A stretch of 52,108 nucleotides of DNA, taken from IMG/VR virus record IMGVR_UViG_3300045988_060999. One strand, 5' to 3'. The position numbers and the translations under genes were made by a program. The notes beneath the pieces are model-generated. The model saw nothing but the letters and a program-made list of their open reading frames with translations, was not told where the DNA came from and did no database searches. Below, piece by piece: positions 2,735 to 26,680 of this stretch; within the stretch, counting starts at the first letter, position 1, and each line of letters opens with the position of its first letter. Source of the DNA: a virus.

Positions 2735-3346
2735 ATGGGAACAATATCAAGTGCATATGTTAGAGACTTAGTTGAGAAAACAAGTCCAGAATCAGAAGAT
2801 TGTTTTGTTCTTGGAAATGAAACAGCAGGAAGGATTAACCTTTCAAATCTTGTAAAAGCTATTGCAAATATTATGCTTCCAGTTGGTCATATTCTTATGA
2901 CAACTAGGAATGTAAACCCGGGAACATATCTTGGTGGAACATGGGTAGCATGGGGAAGTGGAAGAGTACCAACAGGAGTAAATGCAGATGATACTGACTA
3001 TAGTGCATCAGAAAGAATAGGTGGTGCTAAAACATTAAATTTAGCACACTCTCATACAGTAAATGGTCACACACATGGTCTGTCAGGTGCGAGAGCCGCT
3101 ATCGGTCGTTCGTCTACAGATATCAATGCAATTAGTTATACGAATGGAGGAAATCCACATGGTGTAACTTTTGACAGACTTTTGAACACAGCGCCGGGAG
3201 TTTCTGGTGGTTCGTGGGGAGCGTTGGACACTGTTCCAATATATGGAAGTACAGACAGTTCTTCACCCGGAACTAATTCACAGTTAGGATATAGAGATAT
3301 CAGACAGCCTTATATTACTTGTTATATGTGGAAAAGGACGGCATAG
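2735..3346 (+). CDS. tail collar (MdpB/Collar-domain-like) tail fibre-associated protein
   Basis: It contains PVGHILMT..NPGTYLGGTWVAWGSGRVP...GGAKTLNLAHSHTVNGHTHGL, resembling phage tail collar proteins. AGGAGG RBS. Confidence 0.6.
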   Translation: MGTISSAYVRDLVEKTSPESEDCFVLGNETAGRINLSNLVKAIANIMLPVGHILMTTRNVNPGTYLGGTWVAWGSGRVPTGVNADDTDYSASERIGGAKTLNLAHSHTVNGHTHGLSGARAAIGRSSTDINAISYTNGGNPHGVTFDRLLNTAPGVSGGSWGALDTVPIYGSTDSSSPGTNSQLGYRDIRQPYITCYMWKRTA

Positions 3347-3678: not shown

Positions 3679-5697
3679 ATGCCTAGTGTGGAAGAACTAT
3701 TATCTGTTGCAGAAGTTGATGCAAATACAAGAAGTGCAATGGATAGTAGGATTGAAATTGATGCAGATACAAGAATTATTCAGATGATGCCACAGGACGA
3801 ATTATTCGGTGTAGAAAGCGATGAAAAATCAGAAAGAAAATATTTCAAAGTGCCTAAAATTGTAGGTAATGGCGTAGACCTGTCAAAGTTGCAATTACGC
3901 ATTAATTATCAAAATGCAAGTAAAATACCAAGCGGAAAAGACATGTATATTGTTACGGATGCAACAGTATATAATGATGAATGGGTATATTTTTCATGGG
4001 AATTAAGCAGGAAAGTAACACAGTATAAAGGCAATATTTATTTTATTGTATGTGCTGTAAAAGCAGACAGCAAGGGAAACATAACAAATGAATGGAACAC
4101 AACATTAGCAGAAGGAAAAGTGTTAGAAGGTCTTGAGGTAGAAACAAGTCAAGAACAACAATATCAAGCAAGTGATTATTTGGAACAATTAAAACAACAG
4201 TTGTTAGAGTACAGCAAAGAAATAAAAGATACATTTCCAAGTGATTATACAGCAATGTCAGAAGATGTGAAGAACTTAAAGGAGAATAAGGTTGACAAAA
4301 CAGAATTTAGGAGTACATTGCAAACTGTTTTTGCGTATATTGCAGACATACGTGCTTATATTGGTTTGGATAATGAAAATCTCGTTGGTATTCAAGTTGA
4401 TTACAAAAACAAAACATTCAAAAGACTTGCCGGAGCAGTCAACCTTACAAAAGGTTCTGATTTTGACAAGTTCACAATGTTTGGCGGTCGTAAACGCTGT
4501 AATGTGGCTGACGATGGTTCTATAGTAGCATGGTACGGTGACGCAGATTACAAAGAAGATGGTTCAATGGGTCAGGTTATGGTATATCAGCCAAAATTCT
4601 ATTATTTGGTTTGCCCGGTTGAATATGACCCGATTGATACAGGTATCGGTTATCACTTAAGAAAAGCAAACTATTATGTGTCAGAAAAACCACGTGCAGG
4701 TTTTAGACTGCATCCGGCATTCTATGATGCATCAGGAAATGAAATTGACTATTTCCTCACATCTGCTTATGAAGGTAGTATTTGGGATGCAGACGGTGAT
4801 GCATATTTGTTACAAGATGAACAGGTTATGAATGCAGGTGGAGATAAATTTTCTTCAATTTCAGGTGCAAGACCTGCATCCGGTTCAACTCAGGGACTTA
4901 CAAGAACAGCTATTGAGCAGATGGCACAAAATAGAGGTGCAAATTGGCATGGTGATCTTATTAAACAAGTTTCTGCTGAACAAATGCTTATGATCATTGA
5001 AATGGGAATGATGAACTTACAAACAGCTATTGCACAAGGTGTTGTTACATTACCTTGGGAAACTGGAAGTGATAAGACAAGTTCATATGCCGCTGTGACT
5101 GGAAGTACATCAGGTATTGGAAACGGTACTGGAAGGGCAGAAAGAACAACTACTTATGAAGGTGGTGTTGCAAAAGAATACACCGTTGATGGTAAAACAT
5201 CAGTTTGTTGGAGAGGTAAAGAAAACTTTTGGGGAAACATTTGGAAGTTTGTTTATGGAATTAATATTTGGGGTAATGGAAAAATGGGGGGCGGTCAGCC
5301 TTACATTTGTTCTGACTTCAACTTTGCTGAAAACAAAAATAGCGGAAACTATGAGGGTGCAGGATTTACAGCAACTAATGTTGAAGGTTATATTTCAGCA
5401 ATGGGATATTCTACAATTTGCGATTGGTTATTTATAGCATCTGAATGTACTGGAAACAGTTCTTTACCCGTTGGAGATTATACTTATATTACACAAAATC
5501 TAAACGGTTACCGTATCGCTCCATTGGGCGGTCGCTGGACTGATGGCGGTGTTGCAGGTGCTTTCTCTTGGTATCTGGATTACGGTGTTGGTCGTCGTTA
5601 TCGGTTTATCGGGGGTCGCTTGGTATATATCCCAACAAAAGACAGTTCTGTTTACAATGCTGCTATTGCTTCATGGAAGGAACAAATGGCAGTTTAA
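3679..5697 (+). CDS. tail fibre / receptor-binding protein
   Basis: 672 aa. The N-terminal part resembles a BppU-like anchor and is followed by a coiled-coil segment. The C-terminus is Gly/Trp/Tyr-rich. AAGGAG RBS. Confidence 0.65.
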   Translation: MPSVEELLSVAEVDANTRSAMDSRIEIDADTRIIQMMPQDELFGVESDEKSERKYFKVPKIVGNGVDLSKLQLRINYQNASKIPSGKDMYIVTDATVYNDEWVYFSWELSRKVTQYKGNIYFIVCAVKADSKGNITNEWNTTLAEGKVLEGLEVETSQEQQYQASDYLEQLKQQLLEYSKEIKDTFPSDYTAMSEDVKNLKENKVDKTEFRSTLQTVFAYIADIRAYIGLDNENLVGIQVDYKNKTFKRLAGAVNLTKGSDFDKFTMFGGRKRCNVADDGSIVAWYGDADYKEDGSMGQVMVYQPKFYYLVCPVEYDPIDTGIGYHLRKANYYVSEKPRAGFRLHPAFYDASGNEIDYFLTSAYEGSIWDADGDAYLLQDEQVMNAGGDKFSSISGARPASGSTQGLTRTAIEQMAQNRGANWHGDLIKQVSAEQMLMIIEMGMMNLQTAIAQGVVTLPWETGSDKTSSYAAVTGSTSGIGNGTGRAERTTTYEGGVAKEYTVDGKTSVCWRGKENFWGNIWKFVYGINIWGNGKMGGGQPYICSDFNFAENKNSGNYEGAGFTATNVEGYISAMGYSTICDWLFIASECTGNSSLPVGDYTYITQNLNGYRIAPLGGRWTDGGVAGAFSWYLDYGVGRRYRFIGGRLVYIPTKDSSVYNAAIASWKEQMAV

Positions 5698-6328: not shown

Positions 6329-7906
6329 ATGAGCATTAATGTGCATGAAAATGTTATAAAGGCTGTAAGATACTATATTTCTAAAGGATTAACTTTGGAA
6401 GGTGCTTGCGGTCTGGCGGCAAACCAGTTTAGGGAATCGTTTTACAAAGGAATTGGCTTTGTTTCGACAAGACTTGAGAGGTTATGTGTTCAGAGATATA
6501 GGGAGAACAAAGGAATTACTTATACCGATAAAACATATACAGAACAAGTGGATAATGGGAAGATTTCAAGAAGTGAATTTTTAAGTCCGCTGGGAAAACA
6601 TTATGGTTATGGTCTTTCACAATGGACTACAAGTGCAAGAAAAGCAGGATTGTATGATTTATGCAAAAAAACAAAAGTTTCTATTGGAGATATGGACACA
6701 CAGATTATTTACACGATTGAAGAATTAAAAGAAAAATTCCCGACAATCTATAAATATCTTTGTACTGTAAAAGATGTAACACAGGCTTCAAATTATGTTT
6801 TACAACATTATGAACAGCCGAATAACTGGCAGACAATGAAAGAAGCAAGGGCAGATACAGCAAAACAAATCTATAACAAAATGAATGAGGTAGGAACAAG
6901 TATGGGAAGTATTAATAATATTATTGCTAGGGAAAGAAGCTATGCAAAAATCCCTTACAAGGAAACAAGTGTAAATAATCAGAAGTTTTCAACAATGGTA
7001 AACAATGCAGGTTTAAGAGGATGTCAAGGACAGCCGTGGTGTGCCACATATCAATTTGCATTGGAATTGGAAGAATTCGGAAAAGCTGTCGCCTTGTCGC
7101 ATTGGAATATGACAACAGGTAATTATTGCGGTTATAGTGTTTTTGAAACAGAAGCAAAATTTGCCAAAGCAGGAAAAACAGGAAAAACCCCAAAAGTTGG
7201 TGCACTGGTAATTTTCAAACAGTCACATATGGGACGAGTGCTTTCAGTGAATGAAAAAAACAAAACATTCGAGTGTGGCGAAGGAAACACAAGCAATAGA
7301 GAGTTCAATCGTAATGGTGATTGTTGTGCGGTAAAAACTTATTCATGGACAGATGCAAAAATTAAATCATTCTGCTATATTAATTATGGACAGAGTAGCA
7401 CAAGCACAGCAACAAAAACAGAAACGACTACTTCTACATGGTCTGGAAAAGGTACTGCACACTGTAGTGCGAATGGCATTAATATCAGAAATACACCAGA
7501 TAGCAGTATTAAAACAAATGTTATTGGTCAGTTGAAAGCAGGAAACCAGTTCGAGTATAATGGCGAAACACAAAGCAACTTTGTTAAAATTCGTGTTATG
7601 TTTGGAGGAAAACAACAGATTTGTTGGATTCACAAAAATTATGTTGTGTATGAAACTGGAACAAAAGCAACAACAAATAGCACAACAAAGAAGAAAACAT
7701 ACACAGTAACAACAGATGCACATGCAAGAAAATATGCAGGAAAAGAGTATGCTACATTGGTTTCATATCCAACACTTAAAAAGGGAACAGTTGTTACTTA
7801 TCTTGCAACGGTAAAAGCTAAAGACGGTGTGGACTGGTACAGAGTAGAAATTGACGGAAAGAAAGGTAAGAAGATTGGCTATGTTTCGTCAAAATGTTTA
7901 AAATAA
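6329..7906 (+). CDS. multidomain endolysin (lysozyme-like N-terminus, CHAP/NlpC-like domain, two SH3-like repeats)
   Basis: GACGLAANQFRES...SQWT resembles a phage tail lysozyme. GQPWCATYQF...HMGRVLSV...GEGNTS resembles a Cys-His amidase. Two C-terminal SH3-like segments are linked by Thr-rich stretches. Confidence 0.8.
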   Translation: MSINVHENVIKAVRYYISKGLTLEGACGLAANQFRESFYKGIGFVSTRLERLCVQRYRENKGITYTDKTYTEQVDNGKISRSEFLSPLGKHYGYGLSQWTTSARKAGLYDLCKKTKVSIGDMDTQIIYTIEELKEKFPTIYKYLCTVKDVTQASNYVLQHYEQPNNWQTMKEARADTAKQIYNKMNEVGTSMGSINNIIARERSYAKIPYKETSVNNQKFSTMVNNAGLRGCQGQPWCATYQFALELEEFGKAVALSHWNMTTGNYCGYSVFETEAKFAKAGKTGKTPKVGALVIFKQSHMGRVLSVNEKNKTFECGEGNTSNREFNRNGDCCAVKTYSWTDAKIKSFCYINYGQSSTSTATKTETTTSTWSGKGTAHCSANGINIRNTPDSSIKTNVIGQLKAGNQFEYNGETQSNFVKIRVMFGGKQQICWIHKNYVVYETGTKATTNSTTKKKTYTVTTDAHARKYAGKEYATLVSYPTLKKGTVVTYLATVKAKDGVDWYRVEIDGKKGKKIGYVSSKCLK

Positions 7907-8015: not shown

Positions 8016-9584
8016 ATGGAAGTAGATAAAGTACAGAATACAGATACAAAATTGAATGAGGACATAACATATTTGTTAGATTATCCTTATTTTGTGTTAT
8101 CAAATAAAACAAATGGCACTGTTTTTAGAAGAGAAGTTTTAGAGATTGAAAAATATTATAAAACATATAAGAATGGTGCTAGGTTCTTTACGGAAGGAAG
8201 TGCCGGTGATTATGTTCCATCACAAGTAAGATTTAAGAACATTAAAACATTGATTAATAAAGAAGCAAGGTTCATGTTTTCACAAACGCCAGATATTAAT
8301 ATCCAAGGAACAACAGTTGAAGACGAAGAGAAAGAACAAGTGGAACAATTACAAACATTAGTTGATAATGTTCTTGAAAGAAATCATTTTCAGAAGTTAT
8401 TATTGCAAAGTGCGAAGGATTGCTTTATCGGAAAAAGAATTGCTTGCCTTGTGGATTTTTCAGAAGAAAGCGGTGTGTTGTTACATTTTTATAACAGCAA
8501 ACAATTCTATTATGAAAAAGAATACGGTTCTGAAAAGATTATTCGTTTTGTAGGTTTTGAAAATATTGAAGAAGGAGAAAACAATAACAGAAAATATCTG
8601 ATTAATGATTATCGGTTAGAAAAAGGTGTTGTATATATGAGCCTGATTCTGTATGACAAAAGCGGAAATGTGATACAGGAAGTTATTTCAGATACAGCAA
8701 CAGAGTTAGATAGAATCCCGGTAAGCATTATTTTTAACACTGGTACATTGGACGACAAAAGAGGTGTTTCGGAAGTATCTGATTTAAGTGACGAAGAAGC
8801 ACTATACAGTAAAATGTCAAATGGTGATGTTGATAGCGTTAGAAAGGGAATGAACCCTATACGTTATGTTGTTGATATGAATAGCCAGACAACGAAAAAT
8901 CTAAGTTCTGGTGCAGGTGCTTTTTGGGACTTAAAATCTGAACAGAATCAGAATGAAGTACATGCGGCAGTTGGAACATTAGCACCTGCATTAAATCACA
9001 CAGAGCCAACAAAAGCTATTCTGGAACGTATTAAATCAGATATGTATGGACAGTTGGAAATTCCAAACATATCAGAGGAAACAATGGTAGGAACAATTAC
9101 AAGTGGAAAGGCATTAAAAGCATTATATTATCCGTTACAGGTTCGATGTGATGAAAAAATGATAACTTGGAAACCTTGTCTGATTGATATTGTAAGAAAT
9201 ATTATCGATATTGCATTGTTGAATGTTGATATTGTAAAAGGTATTTATCCAATTGTAGATTTGCAGGAGATTCAATATAACGTTGTAATACAAGAGCATT
9301 ATGCACTGGCAGAAGATGAACAGGAAGAAAAGGCAACAGACCTGTCTGAGATTGCATCAAATACACGAAGCAGAAAGTCATACATGAAAAAATGGCGTCC
9401 AGAGTTGACAGATGAACAAATCAACGAAGAGTTGTTACAGATTGCTATGGAATTGAATATGTTTGATACGATGGCAGTCAATACACAAGTACAAACGGAA
9501 TTGGATAATGTTTCAACGAAATATGAAGTTGACAAAAATATAGAGGATGTTGAAACAGAACAAAAAGCGGAAAACAAACAGTAA
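8016..9584 (+). CDS. portal protein (SPP1 gp6-like)
   Basis: 522 aa with an acidic C-terminus, positioned before the gp7-like, scaffold and capsid genes. The call rests on size and context plus general similarity. Confidence 0.75.
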   Translation: MEVDKVQNTDTKLNEDITYLLDYPYFVLSNKTNGTVFRREVLEIEKYYKTYKNGARFFTEGSAGDYVPSQVRFKNIKTLINKEARFMFSQTPDINIQGTTVEDEEKEQVEQLQTLVDNVLERNHFQKLLLQSAKDCFIGKRIACLVDFSEESGVLLHFYNSKQFYYEKEYGSEKIIRFVGFENIEEGENNNRKYLINDYRLEKGVVYMSLILYDKSGNVIQEVISDTATELDRIPVSIIFNTGTLDDKRGVSEVSDLSDEEALYSKMSNGDVDSVRKGMNPIRYVVDMNSQTTKNLSSGAGAFWDLKSEQNQNEVHAAVGTLAPALNHTEPTKAILERIKSDMYGQLEIPNISEETMVGTITSGKALKALYYPLQVRCDEKMITWKPCLIDIVRNIIDIALLNVDIVKGIYPIVDLQEIQYNVVIQEHYALAEDEQEEKATDLSEIASNTRSRKSYMKKWRPELTDEQINEELLQIAMELNMFDTMAVNTQVQTELDNVSTKYEVDKNIEDVETEQKAENKQ

Positions 9585-16894: not shown

Positions 16895-19800
16895 ATGGCA
16901 GTAAATATAGGTTCAGCCGTTGCATACCTCGAATTGGACACTAGCAAGTTCTCCAAAGGTTTCAAAACTGCCTATAACGACTTGAAAGTGTTTTCGGATA
17001 AATCGGCAACGGCAGGAAACAAGCTGAGAGGATTAAGTAGTACTTTTGATTCTGTCGGTAAATCATTAACAAAAACAGTAACAGTACCGCTTGTAGGAAT
17101 TGGAACAGCGGCGGTAAAAACAGCGGCACAATTTGACAGCCATATGTCAGAAGTAAAAGCTATCTCAGGAGCAACAGGAGAACAGTTTACACAGCTTCGC
17201 AATAAAGCAATTGAAATGGGAGCGAAAACAAAATACTCAGCTTCTGAGAGTGCACAAGCGTTCAAATATATGGCAATGGCAGGATGGGACACAAAAGATA
17301 TGTTGAATGGCATTTCTGGTGTTATGAATCTTGCCGCCGCTTCTGGCGAAGACCTTGCAAGCGTTTCAGATATAGTCACTGATGCAATGACAGCTTTTGG
17401 TCTATCAGCAGATGGGACAACAAAAGTCATTAAAAATGGACTTACAGTAGAAGTTTCGAACGCAACACATTTTGCAGATGTGTTATCACAGGCTTCGAGA
17501 AAGTCCAACACTAATGTTGCTATGATGGGAGAAACATTCAAATATGTTGCACCAGTCGCAGGAGCGTTAGGATACAGTGTAGAAGATACAGCTGTAGCAA
17601 TTGGATTAATGGCGAATAGTGGTATCAAAGCATCACAAGCTGGAACAACACTTAGAACGTTATTAACCAACATGGCGAAACCAACTGATACAATGCAATC
17701 AGCTATGGATTATCTTGGTATTTCACTTGAAACAACAGACGGAAAAATGAAAAGTTTTTCTGAGGTTATGCAGGATTTGAGGAAGTCTTTCGGGCAGTGT
17801 AAAATGCCGATGGACACATTCAAGAAGAAGTTAGCAGAAATTGAAAAACAACATGAAAGCGGTGAGATAACAGAAAAGAAATATAATGCCGCTGTTGAAG
17901 ACCTTACAAAGAAAGCATATGGAGCAGAAGGAGCATTAAAAGCTAACTTGGCGGCTTCATTGGCAGGAGCGCAAGGAATGTCTGGTCTGTTAGCAATCGT
18001 AAATTCAACAGATGAGGATTTTCAAAATCTAACAGATTCTATTAATAATTGCGATGGTGTATCTCAGGATATGGCAGATACAATGAACGATAATTTGAAT
18101 GGCGCTGTTACGTTGTTAAAAAGTGCGATCGAATCAGCACTAATTTCAATTGGTGATAGATTTACGCCAGTAATTAGAAAGTTAGCAGAAAACATAACAG
18201 GACTTATAGAAAAGTTTAACGGTTTGTCAGATGAACAAAAAGACCAGATTGTAAAATGGGGATTAATTGTCGCCGCAATCGGTCCGAGTTTGATAGTATT
18301 TTCAAGTGTAACAAAACTTTTAGCTAATGTTGCAGATGGTTTCAAATTGACAAAAGATGCAATATTTGGTTTTGAGAAAGTTTTAAAACGAGGAACTTTT
18401 GAACTTGGAAAAGTTACAACATACACGAAACAAATCCCCGGATTACTTGATAACATGATGTTGGCAGTAAATACAAATGTAGAAGGATATGGATTGTTAG
18501 GCGGTTCTATAAGAAGTGTGGGACAAGCATTTTCATTCCTTATTTCAAAAATTAATCCAGTTGCAGTTGTGATAACATTATTAGTTGCATCGTTCGCAAC
18601 ATTATGGAAAACAAATGAAAAGTTCCGTAACAAAGTCATTGGAATATGGGAACAGGTAAAAGGAAAGTTTCAAGAATTTTCAGATGCAATTACAGAAAAG
18701 ATAAATGCACTAGGATTTAATTTTAAAGACATAACAGATGTAATCAAAGGAGCATGGGAAGGATTTGCAAATGCTATAGCTTCGCCAATTATAACAAATG
18801 CATTACAGCTTATCGCAGATACTTTTGGAAATGTTTTGGATTTCATTTTAGGTGCAGTTGACACGTTACTTGGTTTGTTTACAGGAAACCATGAACAATT
18901 TGTTAGTGGTATCAAAGAAATGTTGTCAGCTATTTCAAGTGCTATTCTTGATGGAATCAAAAACATTGGCTCGCTTGTCGGAGAGTTACTAGCGAATGTA
19001 CTTGAACTGTTCGGATTTGACAAAGCCGCTGATGCGGTTAGAACATTCTTTACAGAAACATTTCCACAAGCAATCGAAGGAGCAAAGGAAAAAATTAAAT
19101 CTGTGATTTCAAACGTACTTGACAGTATTATGAGTTTTTCGGATGGGGTTTCTGAGAATTTCCATAAAGCTGTTGATGGCGTGAAAGATTTTGCAAGTAA
19201 TGTCAAAGAGTTCTGGACGGAAAAAGTACCAGATGCTTTTAGAAGTGGCAAGGACAAAGTTGTAGAAGTTGTTACAGGAATTAAGGATAAAATCAAAGAA
19301 GGTTTTACAGGTGCGCTTGATGCAATAAAACAATTTGGAACGAATGTTAAAACATTTTTCACACAAACAATACCAGAAGCGTTTATAAGTTTTGTGACTG
19401 AAACAGTACCGAATTTTGTGCAGTCTGTTGTAACATTTTTTGAAACATTGCCAGAGAAAGTTGGATTTGCAATAGGTCAATTTATTGGAAAGTTATATGT
19501 GTTCGGCTCTGATATGATATCATGGGCGGCAGAAGCTATACCTAGTTTGATTGATTCAATTGTAACATTCTTTGCAGAGTTACCGGGTAAAATTTGGACT
19601 TGGTTACAGAATACAATCGAGAAAATTAAAACATGGGGAGCGGCAATGAAAGATGCCGCAGTAATGTTTGCACAAAACACGATTGATTCCGTAGTTAATT
19701 GGTTTATGCAATTGCCGGGTAAAATTTGGACTTGGTTACAAAATGTTATCACAAAAATCAAGGCTTGGGGTTCAAATATGCTGAGTAGCGCAAAGACTTC

Positions 19801-20449
19801 AACGCAAAACATGGTAAATACAGCGGTGACAATAATTTCACAGTTACCGGGTAAATTTTGGTCTTGGTTACAAAATACAATTTCAAAAATTGCATCATGG
19901 GGCGGTAATATGGTTTCATCTGGTAGAACAGCAATAACTAATTTTATCAGTTCTGTGATTGATACACTTGTATCTTTGCCGGGTAAAGTTTGGAATATTT
20001 TACAACAAATTCCTAGCAAAGTTTCCAGTCTTGGTAGTACATTATACAATGCAGGTCGGTCAGCATTTTCAAGATTGTGGGATGGAATAAAGTCAATTGG
20101 TAGTGGTATTCTTGGATGGGTACAAGGTTTTGCAAGTAAAATTGGAAGTTTTGTAAGTAGTATCGTTTCTGGTTTTCAGAGCATTGTTGGAAAATCTAAC
20201 GAAGCAAGGTCAGCCGCATCTTCCGTGAATGGACACCACGCAAATGGACTTGACTATGTTCCATTTAATGGTTATACAGCTTATTTGCATAAGGGTGAAA
20301 GAGTTCTAACAAAGCAGGAAAACGAAGCATATACAAGAGGTAGAACATCACAAGGCGATACGTTTAATTTTTACAATACAAAACCGAACGCATATGAATA
20401 TGCTCGACAAATGAAAAAAGCAAAAAAGGAATTGTTAGAAGGATTTTAA
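16895..20449 (+). CDS. tape measure protein
   Basis: 1184 aa with an N-terminal TMP core (AMAGW..., hydrophobic segments) and internal tandem repeats. Confidence 0.9.
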   Translation: MAVNIGSAVAYLELDTSKFSKGFKTAYNDLKVFSDKSATAGNKLRGLSSTFDSVGKSLTKTVTVPLVGIGTAAVKTAAQFDSHMSEVKAISGATGEQFTQLRNKAIEMGAKTKYSASESAQAFKYMAMAGWDTKDMLNGISGVMNLAAASGEDLASVSDIVTDAMTAFGLSADGTTKVIKNGLTVEVSNATHFADVLSQASRKSNTNVAMMGETFKYVAPVAGALGYSVEDTAVAIGLMANSGIKASQAGTTLRTLLTNMAKPTDTMQSAMDYLGISLETTDGKMKSFSEVMQDLRKSFGQCKMPMDTFKKKLAEIEKQHESGEITEKKYNAAVEDLTKKAYGAEGALKANLAASLAGAQGMSGLLAIVNSTDEDFQNLTDSINNCDGVSQDMADTMNDNLNGAVTLLKSAIESALISIGDRFTPVIRKLAENITGLIEKFNGLSDEQKDQIVKWGLIVAAIGPSLIVFSSVTKLLANVADGFKLTKDAIFGFEKVLKRGTFELGKVTTYTKQIPGLLDNMMLAVNTNVEGYGLLGGSIRSVGQAFSFLISKINPVAVVITLLVASFATLWKTNEKFRNKVIGIWEQVKGKFQEFSDAITEKINALGFNFKDITDVIKGAWEGFANAIASPIITNALQLIADTFGNVLDFILGAVDTLLGLFTGNHEQFVSGIKEMLSAISSAILDGIKNIGSLVGELLANVLELFGFDKAADAVRTFFTETFPQAIEGAKEKIKSVISNVLDSIMSFSDGVSENFHKAVDGVKDFASNVKEFWTEKVPDAFRSGKDKVVEVVTGIKDKIKEGFTGALDAIKQFGTNVKTFFTQTIPEAFISFVTETVPNFVQSVVTFFETLPEKVGFAIGQFIGKLYVFGSDMISWAAEAIPSLIDSIVTFFAELPGKIWTWLQNTIEKIKTWGAAMKDAAVMFAQNTIDSVVNWFMQLPGKIWTWLQNVITKIKAWGSNMLSSAKTSTQNMVNTAVTIISQLPGKFWSWLQNTISKIASWGGNMVSSGRTAITNFISSVIDTLVSLPGKVWNILQQIPSKVSSLGSTLYNAGRSAFSRLWDGIKSIGSGILGWVQGFASKIGSFVSSIVSGFQSIVGKSNEARSAASSVNGHHANGLDYVPFNGYTAYLHKGERVLTKQENEAYTRGRTSQGDTFNFYNTKPNAYEYARQMKKAKKELLEGF
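19550..20077 (+). repeat. four tandem 132-nt (44-aa) repeats inside the tape measure gene
   Basis: TT(A/G)CCGGGTAAA recurs at 19580, 19712, 19844 and 19976. The peptide core is LPGK(I/F/V)W.(W/I)LQ. Confidence 0.85.
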
Positions 20450-23363: not shown

Positions 23364-23654
23364 ATGGAAAATGATAGATTGTTAAATGTAATGCGTGATA
23401 CAATTAAGCAATATGTAGAAGCAAACAAAACAAAAAACAAAATTATTTTTTTATTAATTGTTTTATTGTTTTTACAATCGTTTGTAAGTTTTGGCTGTTT
23501 TTGTTACCATGAAACACATTGTAAACATTATATTGTCGAAAGTGCTATTGACAGTCAAAGCAAAATGGAAGATATACAAGCGAATGTTTATTTGTGCCAC
23601 GCATGGTGGGAAAATGTATGGATGAAGAAACACAGAAAACCAGAAAAAGGTTAA
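23364..23654 (+). CDS. small membrane protein with a Cys/His-rich segment
   Basis: One TM helix (IIFLLIVLLFLQSFVSFG) is followed by CFCYHETHCKHY...CHAWW. Confidence 0.5.
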   Translation: MENDRLLNVMRDTIKQYVEANKTKNKIIFLLIVLLFLQSFVSFGCFCYHETHCKHYIVESAIDSQSKMEDIQANVYLCHAWWENVWMKKHRKPEKG

Positions 23655-23851
23655 AAGGAATATGGTCGGTAGAAGAATTTAATGACCTGTTAGAAAGAAC
23701 AATGTTATCAACAGAAGAAAAACAAATACTAATATTGTATTACAAAGAACAAAAGACATTGACATACATTGCAGACTTTCTTGGAATGTCAGAAATAACT
23801 GTCAAAAGAAAACATAAAAAGTTATTGATGAAAATAGGAAAAATGTTATGA
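23618..23851 (+). CDS. sigma-70 region-4-like / YlxM-like HTH transcriptional regulator
   Basis: LSTEEKQILILYYKEQKTLTYIADFLGMSEITVKRKHKKLLMKI. The start is uncertain (23594, 23603 or 23618). Confidence 0.65.
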   Translation: MDEETQKTRKRLKGIWSVEEFNDLLERTMLSTEEKQILILYYKEQKTLTYIADFLGMSEITVKRKHKKLLMKIGKML

Positions 23852-23854
23852 ATT

Positions 23855-23880
23855 AAGGACGCATTTGGCGTCCTTTTTTA
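23855..23880 (+). terminator. intrinsic terminator
   Basis: GGACGC-atttg-GCGTCC followed by TTTTTT. Confidence 0.8.
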
Positions 23881-23960
23881 TTTGCTATTTTTATGATACT
23901 TTTTAGATATTTCATATTATATGGTTATGTTAAAATAAAATTAGAAAGGAGGTAATTGAA

Positions 23961-24413
23961 ATGTACGCTTATCCATATGGAATGAATAATAATATGCAAC
24001 AGCAATTGGCACAGAATAGAATGGAACAATTGCAACAGCAGTATAATAATATGTTTCCGATGATGCAACAACAACAGCAGATACAGCAACCACAGCAGTT
24101 TTTGAAAGGTAGACCAGTTTCGAGTTTGGAAGAAGCAAGGGCTAGTATGATAGACTTAGATGGTAGCTTGTTTGTTTTTACAGATATCGCAAATAACAAA
24201 ATATATACGAAACAAATAATGTTAGATGGTACAGCAGAACTTAAAACATATGAACTTGTAGAACAAAACAAAGCACAAGTAGAACATAAAAATAGCAATG
24301 AATGTGTATCAAAAAAAGAATTTGACGAAGTGATTGGAAAATTAAAGAAACAAATCGAAGTCTTAAAGGAGGGCATATTATATGATGCAGAACATGATAC
24401 AGCAAATGATTAA
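23961..24413 (+). CDS. Gln/Met-rich N-terminus protein, hypothetical
   Basis: The N-terminus reads QQQLAQNRMEQLQQQYNNMFPMMQQQQQIQQPQQ and is followed by KGRPVSSLEEARASMIDLDGS. AAGGAGG RBS. Confidence 0.6.
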   Translation: MYAYPYGMNNNMQQQLAQNRMEQLQQQYNNMFPMMQQQQQIQQPQQFLKGRPVSSLEEARASMIDLDGSLFVFTDIANNKIYTKQIMLDGTAELKTYELVEQNKAQVEHKNSNECVSKKEFDEVIGKLKKQIEVLKEGILYDAEHDTAND

Positions 24414-24570
24414 ATGCAACCCGTTGTATAAAAGGGCAGAGCAAATGGCACGAGGAAAAAGTGAGAATGAATTGAAACAAGTAGCTGTAAATTTATGCAA
24501 ACAGAGAGGGATAAATATTAATGAAGCGTATAAACAGTTTCAAAGTTTTATGGGCGGTATGAACCGATAA
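24382..24570 (+). CDS. small hypothetical protein
   Basis: An AAGGAGGG RBS sits 9 nt upstream. It overlaps the end of the previous gene. Confidence 0.5.
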   Translation: MMQNMIQQMIKCNPLYKRAEQMARGKSENELKQVAVNLCKQRGININEAYKQFQSFMGGMNR

Positions 24571-24608
24571 ACGGTTTATATAAATATTTTTTAAAGGAGG
24601 TACATACT

Positions 24609-25301
24609 ATGAGTATGGATGGTAATGGTTTAAGTGTAGCTGATGCATTGGCATTAGGACGAGACGGCAATGGAATGTTTGGAGATGGCAATGGAAGTTG
24701 GATTTTCTTTTTGTTTTTCCTACTTGCATGGGGCGGCAACTTTGGAAACTGGGGTGGTAACGGTATGAATAGCACAGCAAGCGCATATACAGACAGCGCA
24801 ATTCAGAGAGGTTTCGACAATCAGGCAGTCATGAACAAACTGAATGGTCTTGAAAGTGGATTATGTGATGGATTCTATTCAGTCAACACTTCACTTCTGA
24901 ATGGTTTCAATGGAACACAGCAAGCAATTAACAATGTAGCAGTTGCAGGTATGCAAAACACAAATGCACTTGCATCACAGCTTTCTGATTGTTGTTGCAC
25001 AACACAACGGAGCATTGATGCAGTAAGATATGAGAACGCAAGAAATACTTGTGATATCGTAAACGCAATTAAAGCTGATGGTGATGCAACGAGAGCATTA
25101 ATGACACAGAATGAGATTCAGAGTCTGAGAGACCAGTTGCAGACAGCAAACTTCCAGCTGAGTCAACAGGCACAGAACGCTACTTTGATTTCAACATTAA
25201 GACCGACACCAATTCCGGCTTATCAGACTTGTTCACCATATGAAAGCGCACAGTTGTTTTCACATTATGGAACAGCCTGTAACAATGGATGTGGATGCTA
25301 A
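24609..25301 (+). CDS. Gly/Asn-rich single-TM protein with a Cys-rich C-terminus, hypothetical
   Basis: GNG repeats flank SWIFFLFFLLAW. The middle is Asn/Gln/Ala-rich and helical. It has a CCC triplet and ends in CNNGCGC. Confidence 0.6.
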   Translation: MSMDGNGLSVADALALGRDGNGMFGDGNGSWIFFLFFLLAWGGNFGNWGGNGMNSTASAYTDSAIQRGFDNQAVMNKLNGLESGLCDGFYSVNTSLLNGFNGTQQAINNVAVAGMQNTNALASQLSDCCCTTQRSIDAVRYENARNTCDIVNAIKADGDATRALMTQNEIQSLRDQLQTANFQLSQQAQNATLISTLRPTPIPAYQTCSPYESAQLFSHYGTACNNGCGC

Positions 25302-25355
25302 AGTGTTTATTTGATGGTTAAAAAGGACTTTCCGCTTATGCGTGATGAATTTGTA

Positions 25356-25380
25356 GGGGCGGTGAATAACCGCCCTTATT
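25356..25380 (+). terminator. GC-rich hairpin (partial terminator or RNA stabiliser)
   Basis: GGGCGG-tgaataa-CCGCCC followed by TTATT. Confidence 0.55.
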
Positions 25381-25414
25381 CGTTTAATTAGAACGTTAGA
25401 AAGGGTGATAGAAA

Positions 25415-25789
25415 ATGTCATGTAGTTTATATAATAATAATGGTTACGGTTGTGGTGGATGTATTCACTTTGTAAAAACAAATAGTGTGACATTACTGGG
25501 TAATGTTTTGACATTAAATATTCCACAAGCAAGCTATAGCAACAAAGAAAGGGTGTGTATTTGTATAGCACAAACAATACCAAGTGTTACAAGTGCAGAC
25601 ACAGTTGTTATAACAATAGGAGCAGGCGCAACACAATATCCATTAAGAACAAGATGTGGTAATAATGTCCACGCAGACCAATTAAGAAGCAGAAAAGTAT
25701 ATCATACAAATGTTGCTACAGATGTTGGCGTATTCACAGTTTCAGAATGTGAATTATGCAAGACAGGTTATAATTTTCCAGTAATTTAA
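25415..25789 (+). CDS. Cys-rich small protein, hypothetical
   Basis: 124 aa with the segments GCGGC, CICI, RTRCG and CELC. Confidence 0.55.
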   Translation: MSCSLYNNNGYGCGGCIHFVKTNSVTLLGNVLTLNIPQASYSNKERVCICIAQTIPSVTSADTVVITIGAGATQYPLRTRCGNNVHADQLRSRKVYHTNVATDVGVFTVSECELCKTGYNFPVI

Positions 25790-25807
25790 TTTAAGGAGGG
25801 TAAAACT

Positions 25808-26533
25808 ATGTATGAAGTGAATGGCGTAAAGTATGACGAAAATAATCAAAAAATAAACACGGAACAAAACTGGAATATGCAAGAACAGCCACAAATGGGA
25901 GTACCACGAAACAAACGTATGCAAGAAAACATTGCAGAAGAAGTGTATATGAAACTGGATGAACATATGCAGAAAGCATTAAGTTTCCATGAACAGCTTG
26001 CGGATTATTTCTGTTTTCTTGGTTTACAAGGCTTTAAGAGAAAATTAGAATGTCAGTATATGGATGAATGTGCAAACAAAAGAAAGTTGCATCATAAGTA
26101 TATCAACATTCACCAGAAGTTGATTCCATTAAGACAGGCACAGTTTCCACAGATGATTCCGAGGGATTGGAGCAAGTACACAACAAATGACGTAAACGAC
26201 AGTGTTCTTCCAAAGTTTGTTAAGAGTGCTATGGAACAGTACAAACAATGGGAACATGAAACAAAAGAACTGTATGAAGAACAGTGGCAGAAATGTATGA
26301 ACAATGGCATGGGAGCAGATGCAGAGTACATTTCAAAACTGATACAAGATGTAACAAAAGAACTGAAAGAAATCAACAGAATGTGTGAACATCTCAATGG
26401 AACTGGATATGATGTAATAGCAATTCATAGTATGCAGGACAAATATCATGAAAAATACAAAAACAAATACAATGACACTTATACAGACAAGTGGAAGAAG
26501 AAAGAAGTAAAAAACAAAACACAAAACAAATAA
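25808..26533 (+). CDS. ferritin-like four-helix-bundle protein (degenerate metal site) with a Lys-rich tail
   Basis: LADYFCFLGLQGFKRKLECQYMDECANKRKLHHKYINIHQKLIPL follows the ferritin A-B helix pattern. The ExxH ligand pattern is not conserved. Confidence 0.45.
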   Translation: MYEVNGVKYDENNQKINTEQNWNMQEQPQMGVPRNKRMQENIAEEVYMKLDEHMQKALSFHEQLADYFCFLGLQGFKRKLECQYMDECANKRKLHHKYINIHQKLIPLRQAQFPQMIPRDWSKYTTNDVNDSVLPKFVKSAMEQYKQWEHETKELYEEQWQKCMNNGMGADAEYISKLIQDVTKELKEINRMCEHLNGTGYDVIAIHSMQDKYHEKYKNKYNDTYTDKWKKKEVKNKTQNK

Positions 26534-26540
26534 ATAAAAC

Positions 26541-26621
26541 AAAAGCCTATATATTATATATAATATTATTAATATAGCTTATAAAAGCTATTTATGTTAT
26601 ATGTAAATATATAGGCTTTTT
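26541..26621 (+). terminator. long composite hairpin terminator
   Basis: AAAAGCCTATATAT (26541-26554) pairs with ATATATAGGCTTTT (26607-26620). There is an inner hairpin TAGCTT..AAGCTA, and a T run follows. Confidence 0.7.
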
Positions 26622-26648
26622 GTTCTTTAAAAAAATATAAAATAGTTG

Positions 26649-26680
26649 TTGACATACTATGTGTTATGTGTTATTATAAT
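26649..26680 (+). promoter_or_regulatory. sigma-A promoter, extended -10
   Basis: TTGACA, 17-nt spacer ending in TGt, then TATTATAAT. The leader starts ATCAGAAACAAG. Confidence 0.7.

Follow-up and report, generated by a model that had tools for sequence, protein, structure and literature searches.

Several described systems come close to parts of the locus examined here. BclA-type fibres of the Bacillus exosporium and endospore appendages (BclA, F-BclA; Pfam BclA_C, PF18573; PDB 1WCK and 9H38; PMC12357932) combine an anchored stalk, a trimeric knob and cysteine-rich partners. RinA/Ltr-type late transcriptional activators of Gram-positive phages (PMC3753634) and sigma-70 region 4 proteins carry a sigma region-4-type HTH, and the former act on the packaging, morphogenesis and lysis operon. 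Ferritin and Dps belong to the ferritin-like superfamily, and Dps proteins carry DNA-binding tails; spanins (Rz/Rz1 and the unimolecular spanin) and viral class I fusion proteins have an N-terminal hydrophobic element followed by helical, probably coiled-coil, sequence. Phage tail fibres end in tip or receptor-binding knob domains.

An earlier note, made from sequence alone, described five plus-strand genes between two terminator-like structures in a viral DNA of 52,108 nucleotides (IMG/VR record IMGVR_UViG_3300045988_060999; this whole stretch is called the window below). To examine this locus further, the genes (P1 to P5) and their surroundings were analysed by profile, structure and comparative searches. 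The five genes are one copy of a conserved cassette found in tailed viruses of many gut anaerobes, both bacteria and methanogenic archaea; the cassette is built around a cysteine-rich protein, P3, with a short hydrophobic, anchor-like segment and an exchangeable partner inferred to be knob-like, and no known function fits it.

Organization of the cassette

The features of the locus, all on the + strand, are as follows.

23364 to 23654: TM96, a 96-aa single-pass membrane protein (context gene)
23594 to 23851: sig4, a small sigma-70 region-4 HTH protein, the presumed dedicated activator of the cassette; public gene calls start it at about 23618, giving 77 aa
23855 to 23875: intrinsic terminator closing the upstream (late structural plus regulator) transcription unit
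23893 to 23920: weak, probably activator-dependent promoter
23961 to 24413: P1, 150 aa, with a Gln/Met/Asn/Tyr-rich N-terminal region, a conserved domain of roughly 50 aa (LKGRPVSSxEEAxAxMIDLDGSxFVFxDxxNxKIYTKQ) and a C-terminal helix
24382 to 24570: P2, 62 aa, overlapping the end of P1 by 32 nt in another frame, with a Met/Gln-rich N-terminus and a conserved helical domain (NNPLFxRAxQMAxGKSxxELxQxAxNLCxQRGI)
24609 to 25301: P3, the 230-aa core protein, with Gly/Asn-rich flanks around a short Trp-bracketed hydrophobic segment (residues 31-41), the motif CCC-T-T-Q-R-S-I-D (128-137), C148, a helical Gln-rich segment, RPTPIPAY, CSPY and a terminal GCGC
25353 to 25379: G+C-rich hairpin between P3 and P4, which may be a partial terminator or attenuator separating P1-P3 from P4-P5
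25415 to 25789: P4, a 124-aa predicted beta-sandwich protein with 8 Cys (invariant C13-x-x-C16 and C48), filling the variable slot 4
25808 to 26533: P5, a 241-aa ferritin-like helical protein with a Gln/Asn-rich N-terminal extension and a Lys-rich tail, filling slot 6
26538 to 26624: long composite hairpin followed by a U run, the terminator of the cassette

The arrangement described in the earlier note was confirmed, with one detail corrected. Each of the five ORFs has a GGAGG-type RBS, although that of P4 is weaker (AAGGGTG). The terminator upstream of P1 has an 8-bp stem with 5 G-C pairs, a 5-nt loop and a T run, and a terminator-like hairpin occupies the same position in most related loci. 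The terminal hairpin folds at -32.6 kcal/mol (z = -6.85, 0 of 200 shuffles as stable), and no Rfam family matches the region. The hairpin between P3 and P4, which the earlier note had not mentioned, has an 11-bp stem with 6 G-C pairs and an interrupted T run, and is the dominant element in the fold of 25300-25414. The first consensus early promoter after the cassette (TTGACA-17-TATTAT with a TG extension) lies at 26649-26677.

The composition of the proteins also agreed with the earlier description, with one exception. The first 47 residues of P1 contain 17 Q, 7 M and 6 N; P3 has DGNG/GGNG repeats flanking WIFFLFFLLAW, the cysteine triplet C128-C130 and a C-terminal CNNGCGC; and the last 30 residues of P5 contain 11 K. 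P4 carries the GCGGC, CICI and CELC motifs; however, it has 8 Cys and not at least nine, as had been claimed. Furthermore, all five genes are under purifying selection relative to sister phages, so they are real genes rather than chance ORFs.

Homology searches with the cassette proteins

To assess whether any member could be assigned a function, the proteins were searched against Pfam, NCBIfam, PHROGs, PADLOC and PDB sequences; no member has an assignable function in these searches, the PHROGs matches of the five being to unknown-function families only, and no member matches a known defence protein. P1 matches phrog_21718 (unknown function) at 2.3e-12 and has 1,938 homologues, none of them named, with no PDB or Pfam relative found. 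P2 gave no family hit. TM96, whose 19-residue Kyte-Doolittle maximum is 2.58, likewise has no functional assignment; its family was aligned and is present upstream of the regulator in 54 of the first 87 loci.

P3 matches phrog_16490 at 2.4e-29 and has more than 7,700 homologue clusters with no names and no Pfam or PDB relative. In an alignment of 44 diverse members, the CCC, T, R, I and D of the CCCxTxRxID motif are invariant or nearly so, and the hydrophobic segment and its Gly flanks are kept in all 44. P3 is under very strong purifying selection, with dN of 0.025-0.056 at dS of 0.7-1.4. An AF2 monomer model of P3 failed (pLDDT 41).

The AF2 model of P4 (pLDDT 77.9, pTM 0.73) has 8 strands. 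Foldseek searches of BFVD with this model found small uncharacterised phage proteins at 1e-10 to 1e-6, and parts (roughly 100 residues) of long proteins named collagen-like, tail fibre, hyaluronidase tail fibre or RBP at 1e-5 to 1e-2; however, the latter resemblance rests on predicted structures with unverified names and unknown aligned positions, and no significant match was found in the PDB. The P4 family has 329 representatives, nearly all small stand-alone proteins of 110-170 aa apart from rare fusions, and one protein (P0512) is a natural P4-DUF7841 fusion.

A family profile of P5 hits the archaeal and bacterial ferritins 5ls9, 3kx9, 5v5k and 1s3q at E = 1.6e-4 to 3.9e-4 over helices A-B, and P5 matches phrog_17879 at 2.5e-5. 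H61, E87, E149 and E185 are conserved, but the ferroxidase site is degenerate; the window protein has E87-C-A-N where ferritin has ExxH. The ferritin likeness without the ExxH ligands, as the earlier note had proposed, is supported.

Distribution and conserved gene order

The order small HTH regulator, terminator, P1, P2, P3, P4 or a BclA_C/C1q-like protein, small protein, and P5 or DUF7841 recurs in over 100 phage and prophage loci, binned to Clostridia, Negativicutes, Bacteroidales, Treponema and others. Among 121 loci with enough flanking sequence, P1 is present in 106, P2 in 85, a slot-4 protein in 111, a slot-6 protein in 83 and the regulator (sig4 or its relative F25, which belongs to the same family) in 69; P1 and P2 lie adjacent to P3 in these loci, and all four slot-4 by slot-6 combinations occur. 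Some lineages, such as the Dialister prophage, have P1-P3 without a detectable slot-4 or slot-6 protein. A failure of the genes to co-occur outside this genome had been named beforehand as grounds for rejecting the cassette, but they co-occur widely.

In about half of the related loci, the P4 position is occupied by a BclA C-terminal-domain/C1q-like protein (PF18573, E = 1.2e-9) whose best solved relative is the F-BclA tip domain of Bacillus endospore appendages (profile against 9H38, E = 3.4e-6). P4 itself shows no profile similarity to these proteins, and the window has no BclA_C-like gene.

The module, or its P3 core, occurs in phages and prophages of the non-sporulating hosts Dialister, Phascolarctobacterium, Bacteroides and Treponema, in crAss-like phages, a Butyrivibrio phage and a Bacteroides phage, and in viruses of Methanomassiliicoccales. 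Its genomic position also varies: the cassette sits after an RBP gene in Dulem virus 36, after an integrase in Dulem virus 39, among early or recombination genes in C. perfringens phages and Bacteroides phage C3_41T2LP, and between the tail-fibre and TerL genes in the Dialister prophage, and it often sits directly after endolysin or holin-like genes.

Putative control of the cassette

sig4 matches Sigma70_r4 (PF04545, E = 2.5e-9), phrog_36 'transcriptional regulator' (5.6e-12) and, below the family cutoff, TIGR01636 RinA (5.6e-5; 23.3 bits against a cutoff of 31.9). The best promoter-like site upstream of P1 scores only 9/12 (ATGATA-16-TATTAT), whereas about 16 sites elsewhere in the window score 11-12/12, confirming that P1 lacks a consensus promoter. 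Two direct repeats, GATACTTTTTA and GATATTTCATA, lie 11 nt apart (23895-23913) and overlap the poor -35, and a TATTAT -10 follows; this 19-nt repeat block is unique in the window. The motif [GTA]ATAC[TC]T occurs at 4.75/kb in regulator-P1 spacers against 0.5/kb in whole loci, a 9.5-fold enrichment, and repeats with a period of roughly 11 nt differ in sequence between regulator lineages (for example TATACTT, TAGGGAC, TGTCYRAA and GGCAGTT). However, it should be noted that the repeat signal over shuffled controls is moderate (mean best match 6.6 against 5.8 of 8). The regulator gene, a terminator and a repeat-bearing spacer travel with the cassette in many lineages; these data suggest a dedicated activator, and they support the earlier proposal that the cassette is a separately controlled unit tied to the sigma region-4 gene.

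Interpretation

The functional interpretation in the earlier note was only partly supported. The lack of an assignable function and the apparent separate control are supported, and virion decoration, a superinfection barrier and envelope remodelling, all of which the note had left open, remain possible. The note's comparison with spore coat or exosporium components, offered only as an analogy, has a basis in real homology, but in sister loci and not in this window; a spore-coat or host-sporulation role is contradicted by the host range.

The analysis itself establishes that the five genes are one instance of a conserved, horizontally mobile accessory cassette of tailed viruses of anaerobic, mostly gut, microbes, comprising the HTH regulator gene and its following terminator, a weak promoter with a poor -35 and direct repeats spaced one helical turn apart, the overlapping P1 and P2, the invariant core protein P3, and exchangeable proteins in slots 4 (a predicted beta-sandwich here) and 6 (helical). 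What the cassette does is, by contrast, inferred from sequence and comparative evidence alone, including regulator binding, expression timing, membrane attachment and every contact between the proteins. Our tentative preferred reading, given a probability of about one in three, is a late-made, membrane-associated stalk-plus-knob complex that is exposed at lysis. In this view, the HTH protein would bind the repeats and switch the cassette on as a separate unit, probably late in the lytic cycle, although the late timing is inferred from gene position only. P3 would attach to the host cytoplasmic membrane through its Trp-bracketed, Gly-flanked segment, since a lipid bilayer is the only partner common to hosts as different as clostridia, Bacteroides and methanogens; because none of the partner proteins has a signal peptide, the complex would assemble on the cytoplasmic face.

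The helical, Cys-rich C-terminal part of P3 would act as a stalk, with the slot-4 protein as its distal knob and the slot-6 protein bound to the knob, a link for which the natural P4-DUF7841 fusion speaks; P1 and P2, with their Gln/Met-rich tails, would act as assembly helpers. The knob-like role of slot 4 is favoured by its BclA_C/C1q-like alternative occupant and by the P4 model. However, the hydrophobic core of P3 is only about 11-15 residues, its 19-residue hydropathy maximum of 1.23 is below the usual value for a membrane-spanning helix, and there is no flanking positive charge, so it could instead be a monotopic anchor, a fusion-peptide-like element or a buried protein-protein plug; likewise, with the failed P3 model the stalk is not shown. 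Exposure to the outside would come only at lysis, where the many conserved cysteines could cross-link the complex and the knob could bind an external ligand; candidate outcomes of this final step are debris or receptor masking, adhesion, and virion tethering.

Alternative explanations were also considered. An accessory virion fibre or decoration is possible but less likely; here P3 would be a trimeric coiled-coil fibre whose hydrophobic N-terminus plugs into a capsid or tail protein, as the N-terminal anchor of reovirus sigma-1 does, with the slot-4 protein as the distal ligand-binding knob, P1, P2 and P5 as assembly chaperones, and cysteines locking the fibre after release. The lack of signal peptides is expected for virion proteins, the cassette often follows tail-fibre or RBP genes (the window, Dulem virus 36 and the Dialister prophage) and in a crAss-like phage lies between the small terminase and major capsid genes, the P4 model resembles parts of proteins named tail fibre, collagen-like or RBP, the slot-4 alternative is the knob domain of BclA-type fibres, and depositors named crAss and Bacteroides-phage homologues of P3 'spike protein' or 'outer capsid protein/viral fiber'. 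However, these names are unverified transfers, and no profile search here found a fibre or spike protein; the same N-terminal segment is conserved across siphovirus-like, T7-like, crAss-like and archaeal tailed viruses, whose virion attachment sites are unlikely to be the same; and the cassette lies among early and recombination genes in some phages and has its own regulator and terminators instead of being part of the structural operon. A lysis or egress accessory, with P3 as a membrane-active (fusogenic or spanin-like) protein or modulator of holin timing acting at the last step of infection and the other proteins as regulators, is unlikely. In several independent lineages the cassette directly follows endolysin or holin-like genes (Peptidase_C39_2+LysM, Amidase_2, phrog_5867 endolysin, and a glucosaminidase in phage Ceridwen), its position in the Dialister prophage is where T7-type phages keep holin and spanin genes, and the Gly-rich hydrophobic N-terminus followed by helices and a Pro-rich, Cys-bearing C-terminus recalls fusion peptides and Rz/Rz1 features; on the other hand, the cassette is present in phages of monoderm hosts such as C. 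perfringens and in archaeal viruses, where spanins have no role, there is no lipoprotein partner, the endolysin of the window is 16 kb away (6329-7906), five or six soluble partners and a dedicated activator are not features of known lysis systems, and the position after the lysis cassette is also the classic site for unrelated cargo genes.

A metal or redox complex, in which the cysteines of P3, P4 and P2 would bind iron-sulfur or zinc centres in the reducing cytoplasm of anaerobes, P5 would serve iron handling, and the module would alter host redox or metal physiology during infection, is doubtful. It is favoured by the restriction to viruses of anaerobes, the CCCxTxRxID motif and further conserved Cys of P3, the conserved CxxC and C48 of P4, and the one conserved His or Glu on each presumed helix of P5; however, the canonical ferroxidase ligands are not kept in P5, P5 is replaced by the unrelated DUF7841 in many loci, slot 4 can be a C1q-like knob, which is not a redox fold, and there is no match to any known metalloprotein family. 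Superinfection exclusion, or another anti-competitor barrier at the membrane of the infected or lysogenic cell, appears somewhat less likely still: the anchor-like segment of P3, the cargo-type unit with its own control, its place next to integrase or lysogeny genes in Dulem virus 39 and archaeal virus vir215, and a variable slot-4 protein that could give specificity would fit, but the cassette depends on a phage-encoded activator (itself inferred) and has no constitutive promoter, it occurs in apparently virulent phages (crAss-like phages and this phage, which has its own replicase), P3 is extremely conserved whereas exclusion proteins usually diversify, and PADLOC gave no hits. Least likely is spore-coat or exosporium-type remodelling of a sporulating host; the Cys-rich and Gln-rich composition, the ferritin-like member and the BclA homology of the alternative slot-4 protein speak for it, but it is already largely refuted by the host range, and the region upstream of P1 has repeats matching a phage regulator, not a recognisable sporulation-sigma promoter.

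Comparison with described systems

Like RinA/Ltr-type activators and sigma-70 region 4 proteins, sig4 is a small phage-encoded protein placed immediately upstream of the operon it would activate, and the target promoter lacks a good -35; however, sig4 is only about 77 aa, its presumed target is a five-gene accessory cassette, and the structural genes of the window have consensus sigma-A-type promoters. The P5 family profile aligns to ferritin helices A-B, including the GL-GF-x-x-x-x-x-Q-x-x-E segment, and the Lys-rich tail of P5 recalls those of Dps proteins; in contrast, the helix-A Glu ligand falls in a gap, ExxH is ExxN in the window and ExxE in most relatives, and only half of the protein aligns significantly. 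P3 shares with spanins and class I fusion proteins the N-terminal hydrophobic element, helical sequence and conserved cysteines, and the cassette is frequently near lysis genes, but there is no outer-membrane lipoprotein partner or lipobox, no sequence or profile similarity was detected, and the hydrophobic segment is shorter than a membrane-spanning helix. P4 resembles fibre-tip or receptor-binding knob domains at the level of predicted structures, although the gene lies outside the tail module and its relatives are almost always free-standing.

Compared with BclA-type fibres, the cassette has no collagen-like stalk, the proposed stalk and knob are separate polypeptides, and the hosts include non-spore-formers and archaea. 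In about half of the related loci, however, the gene after P3 encodes a BclA_C/C1q-like domain, and the overall idea of an anchored stalk, a trimeric knob and cysteine-rich partners matches the proposed arrangement of P3 and the slot-4 protein.

Genomic setting and validation of the cassette

The cassette lies within a tailed-phage genome of roughly 52 kb in which all genes are on the + strand and the G+C content is about 0.34. The principal features of the genome, and those flanking the cassette, are as follows.

216-1343, + strand: large terminase gene
1402-1998, + strand: HNH endonuclease gene, directly following the large terminase gene
2735-3346, + strand: tail-like gene
3679-5697, + strand: tail-like gene matching phrog_5302
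6329-7906, + strand: gene for a 525-aa endolysin
8016-9584, + strand: portal gene
16895-20449, + strand: tape-measure gene, with distal tail genes running up to 23347
23364-23654, + strand: TM96, a membrane-protein gene
23594-23851, + strand: regulator gene (sig4); public gene calls start it at about 23618, giving 77 aa
25353-25379: G+C-rich hairpin separating P1-P3 from P4-P5
26538-26624: composite hairpin followed by a U run
from about 26.7 kb, + strand: replication module with a DnaG-type primase and a PHP/DNA polymerase III alpha gene

The cassette is located at the junction between the end of the structural genes and the first consensus early promoters, and contigs carrying exactly the same P3 protein (the core protein of the cassette), with the same neighbouring genes, recur in many public metagenome assemblies. 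The related Dulem virus 36 is annotated with a terminase in two pieces around an endonuclease, and this suggests a split or intron-interrupted terminase at 216-1998. The gene order is unusual, as the two tail-like genes and the endolysin gene lie upstream of the portal gene and far from the rest of the tail module. TM96 overlaps the start of the regulator ORF; relatives of TM96 carry a conserved FxWYESQ motif after the membrane helix and a Thr/Asn-rich tail, whereas the copy in the window has a divergent Cys/His-rich tail. TM96 was considered as a zinc-binding anti-sigma partner of the regulator; however, its Cys/His residues are not conserved in the family, and this idea was dropped.

An earlier note had described five genes with good ribosome-binding sites between an upstream terminator and a downstream composite hairpin, and this observation is confirmed, as the five ORFs, their RBSs and both bracketing structures are all present. 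The hairpin at 26538-26624 is far more stable than shuffled sequence (-32.6 kcal/mol, z = -6.85). Two corrections were required: P4, the fourth protein of the cassette, has 8 cysteines, not nine or more, and the hairpin at 25353-25379 had not been noted. Comparison with sister phages shows purifying selection on all five genes, indicating that they are real genes. An Rfam search found nothing in the region.

Proteins encoded by the cassette

None of the five proteins (P1-P5) matched a Pfam or NCBIfam family, and PHROGs placed P1, P3 and P5 in families of unknown function. A scan against the PADLOC-DB models of anti-phage defence systems gave no hit below E = 1e-3 for P1-P5, with only one weak hit of P1 to a SWIM model at 0.0029. 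Single-sequence and profile searches of PDB sequences returned nothing for P1, P3 (three alignments of increasing breadth, the last a 44-member profile) or P4. Source names of cluster members were all 'hypothetical' or absent.

P3 is the centre of the system, with more than 7,700 homologue clusters at 90% identity, none of them named and none with a Pfam domain. The hallmarks of P3 are a Gly/Asn-rich region around a short, Trp-bracketed hydrophobic segment, an invariant CCC followed by x-T-x-R-x-I-D, a further Cys about 18 residues on, a Gln-rich helical segment, an RPxPxPAY motif and a C-terminal GCGC. These hallmarks are kept in relatives only 18-30% identical to it, from crAss-like phages, Butyrivibrio phage Ceridwen, a Bacteroides uniformis phage and viruses assigned to Methanomassiliicoccales. 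The Trp-bracketed hydrophobic core of 11-15 residues (about 11 in the window) is conserved in all 44 members of the diverse alignment; however, it is short, its 19-residue Kyte-Doolittle maximum is 1.23, and it has no K/R flank. An AlphaFold2 monomer model of P3 built from 38 close homologues failed, with a pLDDT of 41. Within the clade of the window, P3 stays 92-98% identical while its neighbours drop to 55-70%, and dN is 0.025-0.056 at dS 0.7-1.4, so this is selection and not merely recent transfer.

P4 yielded a usable AlphaFold2 model (pLDDT 77.9, pTM 0.73), which predicts an eight-stranded beta-sandwich. A Foldseek search against solved structures gave no significant match to this model, the best hit being the Pa193 baseplate/tail fibre at E = 0.21, and neither BclA nor C1q was among the PDB hits. 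In the viral predicted-structure library (BFVD), the model matched small uncharacterised phage proteins, including crAss-like ones, and more weakly, although still significantly, matched roughly 100-residue parts of long predicted proteins named collagen-like, tail fibre, hyaluronidase tail fibre or receptor-binding protein. An exhaustive HMMER search found 329 representatives of the P4 family, almost all of them free-standing proteins of 110-170 aa.

P5, the last protein of the cassette, resembles ferritins in a profile of 26 relatives, which hit four ferritin sequences at E = 1.6e-4 to 3.9e-4, but only over helices A-B, as the C-D region scored insignificantly. The canonical di-iron ferroxidase ligands (Glu on helix A, ExxH on helix B, Glu on helix C, and ExxH or QxxE on helix D) are not kept: the helix-A Glu falls in an alignment gap, and ExxH is replaced by E87-C-A-N90 in the window and by E-S-A-E in most relatives. 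The conserved residues H61, E87, E149 and E185 may form a different site. The earlier description of P5 as following the ferritin helix A-B spacing without the ExxH ligands is therefore right.

P1 and P2, the first two proteins of the cassette, each combine a Gln/Met/Asn/Tyr-rich N-terminal region with a small conserved domain, and neither has a detectable relative of known function; a Pfam scan of 35 relatives of P1 gave only scattered single hits. In this clade, P1 (23961-24100), P2 (24382-24420) and P5 (25808-25940) all carry Gln/Asn/Met-rich low-complexity N-terminal extensions, whereas relatives of P5 in other clades lack theirs.

Conservation and mobility of the cassette

To assess whether the cassette recurs elsewhere, 80 viral contigs and 80 genome or MAG contigs were collected with a P3 profile, together with annotated phage records, and their ORFs were scanned with profiles of each family. 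The recurring order is a small HTH regulator, a terminator, P1, P2, P3, a variable position termed slot 4, a protein of about 70 aa (F9) and a second variable position termed slot 6. The 121 loci with enough flanking sequence were chosen through P3 and include close relatives, so the fractions are descriptive only.

Occurrence of cassette elements among the 121 loci with enough flanking sequence
P1: 106
P2: 85
Slot-4 protein: 111
Slot-6 protein: 83
Regulator: 69

Slot 4 holds either a P4-family protein or a 140-155-aa protein of the BclA C-terminal-domain/C1q type. The latter matches PF18573 at E = 1.2e-9, and the best solved match of its profile is 9H38, identified as the tip-fibrillum domain F-BclA-CTD of Bacillus thuringiensis endospore appendages (PMC12357932). 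P4 itself has no hit to PF18573 or PF00386, and profile-profile alignment (hhalign) of P4 against the BclA_C-like family gave a probability of 0.5%. Slot 6 holds either P5 or a DUF7841 protein, and profile-profile comparison of these also showed no relation; the alternative occupants of slots 4 and 6 are therefore analogues, not detectable homologues. All four combinations of slot-4 and slot-6 proteins occur. A natural fusion protein from the representative library, P0512, which is not in the window, joins a P4-like domain (residues 14-110) to a DUF7841 domain (residues 136-243), with E = 8e-17 and 9e-31 against the separate proteins, and this argues that the slot-4 and slot-6 proteins work together.

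The module moves between genomic contexts. It was found after a receptor-binding protein gene in Dulem virus 36, after an integrase in Dulem virus 39, between the antirepressor and Gam/Erf genes in C. perfringens phages, among recombination genes in Bacteroides phage C3_41T2LP, and between the tail-fibre and large-terminase genes of a Dialister prophage in a 2.5-Mb contig; furthermore, in several lineages it lies directly after endolysin or holin-like genes. In the archaeal virus Caudoviricetes sp. vir215 (locus L168, 4152-6759; host Methanomassiliicoccales), the P3 homologue, annotated phrog_16490, lies just downstream of a reverse-transcriptase gene of the diversity-generating-retroelement type and a few kb from an integrase. 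The module is also mosaic. In loci L011-L027, P3 is 92-98% identical to the copy in the window while P1, P2, P5 and the regulator are 50-70% identical, whereas in loci L042-L047 P4 stays at 77% but P3 drops to about 56-61%. These data indicate recombination between cassette genes.

The hosts implied by isolates, by large chromosomal contigs and, less reliably, by MAG bins include Clostridia, Negativicutes, Bacteroidales, Treponema, Gastranaerophilales, Fibrobacter and methanogenic archaea. The module was found in contigs of Dialister, Phascolarctobacterium, Bacteroidales and Treponema, in crAss-like phages and in viruses of Methanomassiliicoccales, and is thus not restricted to endospore-forming hosts; this host range largely excludes a function specific to endospores.

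Regulation of the cassette

The gene upstream of the cassette encodes a sigma-70 region-4 protein, scoring 36.9 bits against PF04545, above the cutoff of 24.1 (E = 2.5e-9). Against the RinA family (TIGR01636) it scored 23.3 bits, below the cutoff of 31.9. The regulator family, which comprises sig4 and its relative F25, almost always lies just upstream, separated from P1 by a terminator and a spacer of about 100-150 nt. The window has about 16 sites that match TTGACA-17-TATAAT at 11-12 of 12 positions, many with a TG extension, and these are spread through both the structural and the replication regions (for example at 100, 7911, 11437, 27350, 29833 and 31048); most of the genome therefore seems to rely on the primary sigma factor of the host. 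In contrast, the best site upstream of P1 scores 9 of 12.

In the window, the spacer carries GATACTTTTTA and GATATTTCATA, 11 nt apart, followed by TATTAT at 23915-23920, and the 19-nt block is unique in the window. Across loci, the motif [GTA]ATAC[TC]T is 9.5-fold enriched in these spacers, and other regulator lineages have different repeats at the same one-turn spacing. The spacers of L120 (about 4950-5350), L100 and L157 hold striking arrays of three or four direct repeats at an 11-nt period (TAGGGAC x4, TGTCYRAA x3 and GGCAGTT x3), each specific to a regulator lineage. The excess of such repeats over shuffled spacers is moderate. The region upstream of P1 was also inspected by eye for a sporulation promoter of the sigma-K or sigma-E type. 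CATATTATA matches the CATAnnnTA -10 pattern of such promoters; however, the spacing to an upstream AC is wrong, and the conserved feature across loci is the direct repeat, not this element. Taken together, the comparative data are read as a dedicated activator whose putative operator co-evolves with it, comparable in logic to the RinA/Ltr late activators of Gram-positive phages (PMC3753634), with binding and activation inferred from sequence comparison alone.

Discussion

The analysis establishes a conserved, mobile, self-contained cassette under strong selection, with a fixed core (P1-P2-P3), two exchangeable slots and a linked regulator, whereas its mode of action, its expression and the contacts between its proteins are inferences. 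The N-terminal hydrophobic and Gly-rich element of P3 is conserved across viruses whose virions and host envelopes differ in nearly everything except the cytoplasmic membrane, and it may therefore target a lipid bilayer. As none of the partners has a signal peptide, assembly would take place on the cytoplasmic face. Slot 4 holds either a C1q-type knob or a predicted fibre-like beta-sandwich, and every partner has conserved cysteines, which suggests a stalk-and-knob assembly that would act outside the cell once lysis exposes it, where oxidation could cross-link it. The CCC triplet recalls the cystine knots that lock trimeric fibres such as collagen III, although this is only an analogy. It should be noted that the hydrophobic core of P3 is only 11-15 residues long and has no flanking positive charges, and that the P3 model failed; this reading is put at about one in three. 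In its widest form, which remains doubtful, the cassette would be a previously undescribed class of viral late apparatus shared by tailed viruses of bacteria from at least six phyla and of methanogenic archaea, that is, a self-regulated, membrane-targeted, cysteine-locked stalk-and-knob assembly, pre-built inside the cell and deployed at lysis.

There are rival explanations. An accessory virion fibre is supported by the position of the module next to tail or capsid genes in some phages and by the fold matches of the P4 model, but is weakened by the universal N-terminal element of P3, by the module's own regulation and by its early-region position in other phages. Depositors have named P3 homologues 'spike protein/glycoprotein' and 'outer capsid protein/viral fiber'; however, these names are unverified transfers that the present searches could not reproduce, and 'spike protein' in a crAss-phage paper refers to an unrelated tail spike. 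Frequent adjacency to lysis genes favours a lysis or egress accessory, yet the module is present in phages of monoderm hosts and in archaeal viruses, and a spanin in particular is not supported, as there is no lipobox-bearing partner among the cassette ORFs, the hydrophobic core of P3 is only about 11 residues with a hydropathy maximum of 1.23, and homologues occur in C. perfringens phages and in archaeal viruses. A metal or redox complex and superinfection exclusion are further rivals. The interpretation offered in the earlier note is partly supported: the proposals of separate control and of no assignable function hold up, and the exosporium analogy has a real but indirect basis, through the BclA_C/C1q-like protein that replaces P4 in other loci, whereas a spore-linked role does not hold up.

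The cassette is not a curiosity of one phage, as the gene order is kept across phages of very different morphotypes and hosts, including crAss-like phages and archaeal viruses of the gut. A module this widespread and this strongly constrained, with a dN/dS of about 0.02-0.05 for P3 and a regulator of its own, must do something important for life in anaerobic gut communities, yet none of its core proteins has a name, a Pfam family or a solved relative. Its definition gives a concrete target for experiment, as isolated phages of C. perfringens (such as XP41-N3 and CPD1), Bacteroides phage C3_41T2LP and Butyrivibrio phage Ceridwen all carry it, and supplies a set of putative regulator-operator pairs that co-vary. 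If the knob proteins bind external ligands, the module could bear on how gut phages, or the debris of their hosts, stick to cells or mucus; if it is a lysis or egress device, it would be one that works across cell-envelope types.

Searches of the accessible literature on the PHROG families, DUF7841 and phage BclA/C1q-like modules found no description of this cassette, and no curated family exists for P1-P4. The module as a whole, and its core protein, match no known kind of system that was tested; its components, however, touch known folds, namely a region-4 HTH, a ferritin-like protein and, in sister loci, a C1q-like knob.
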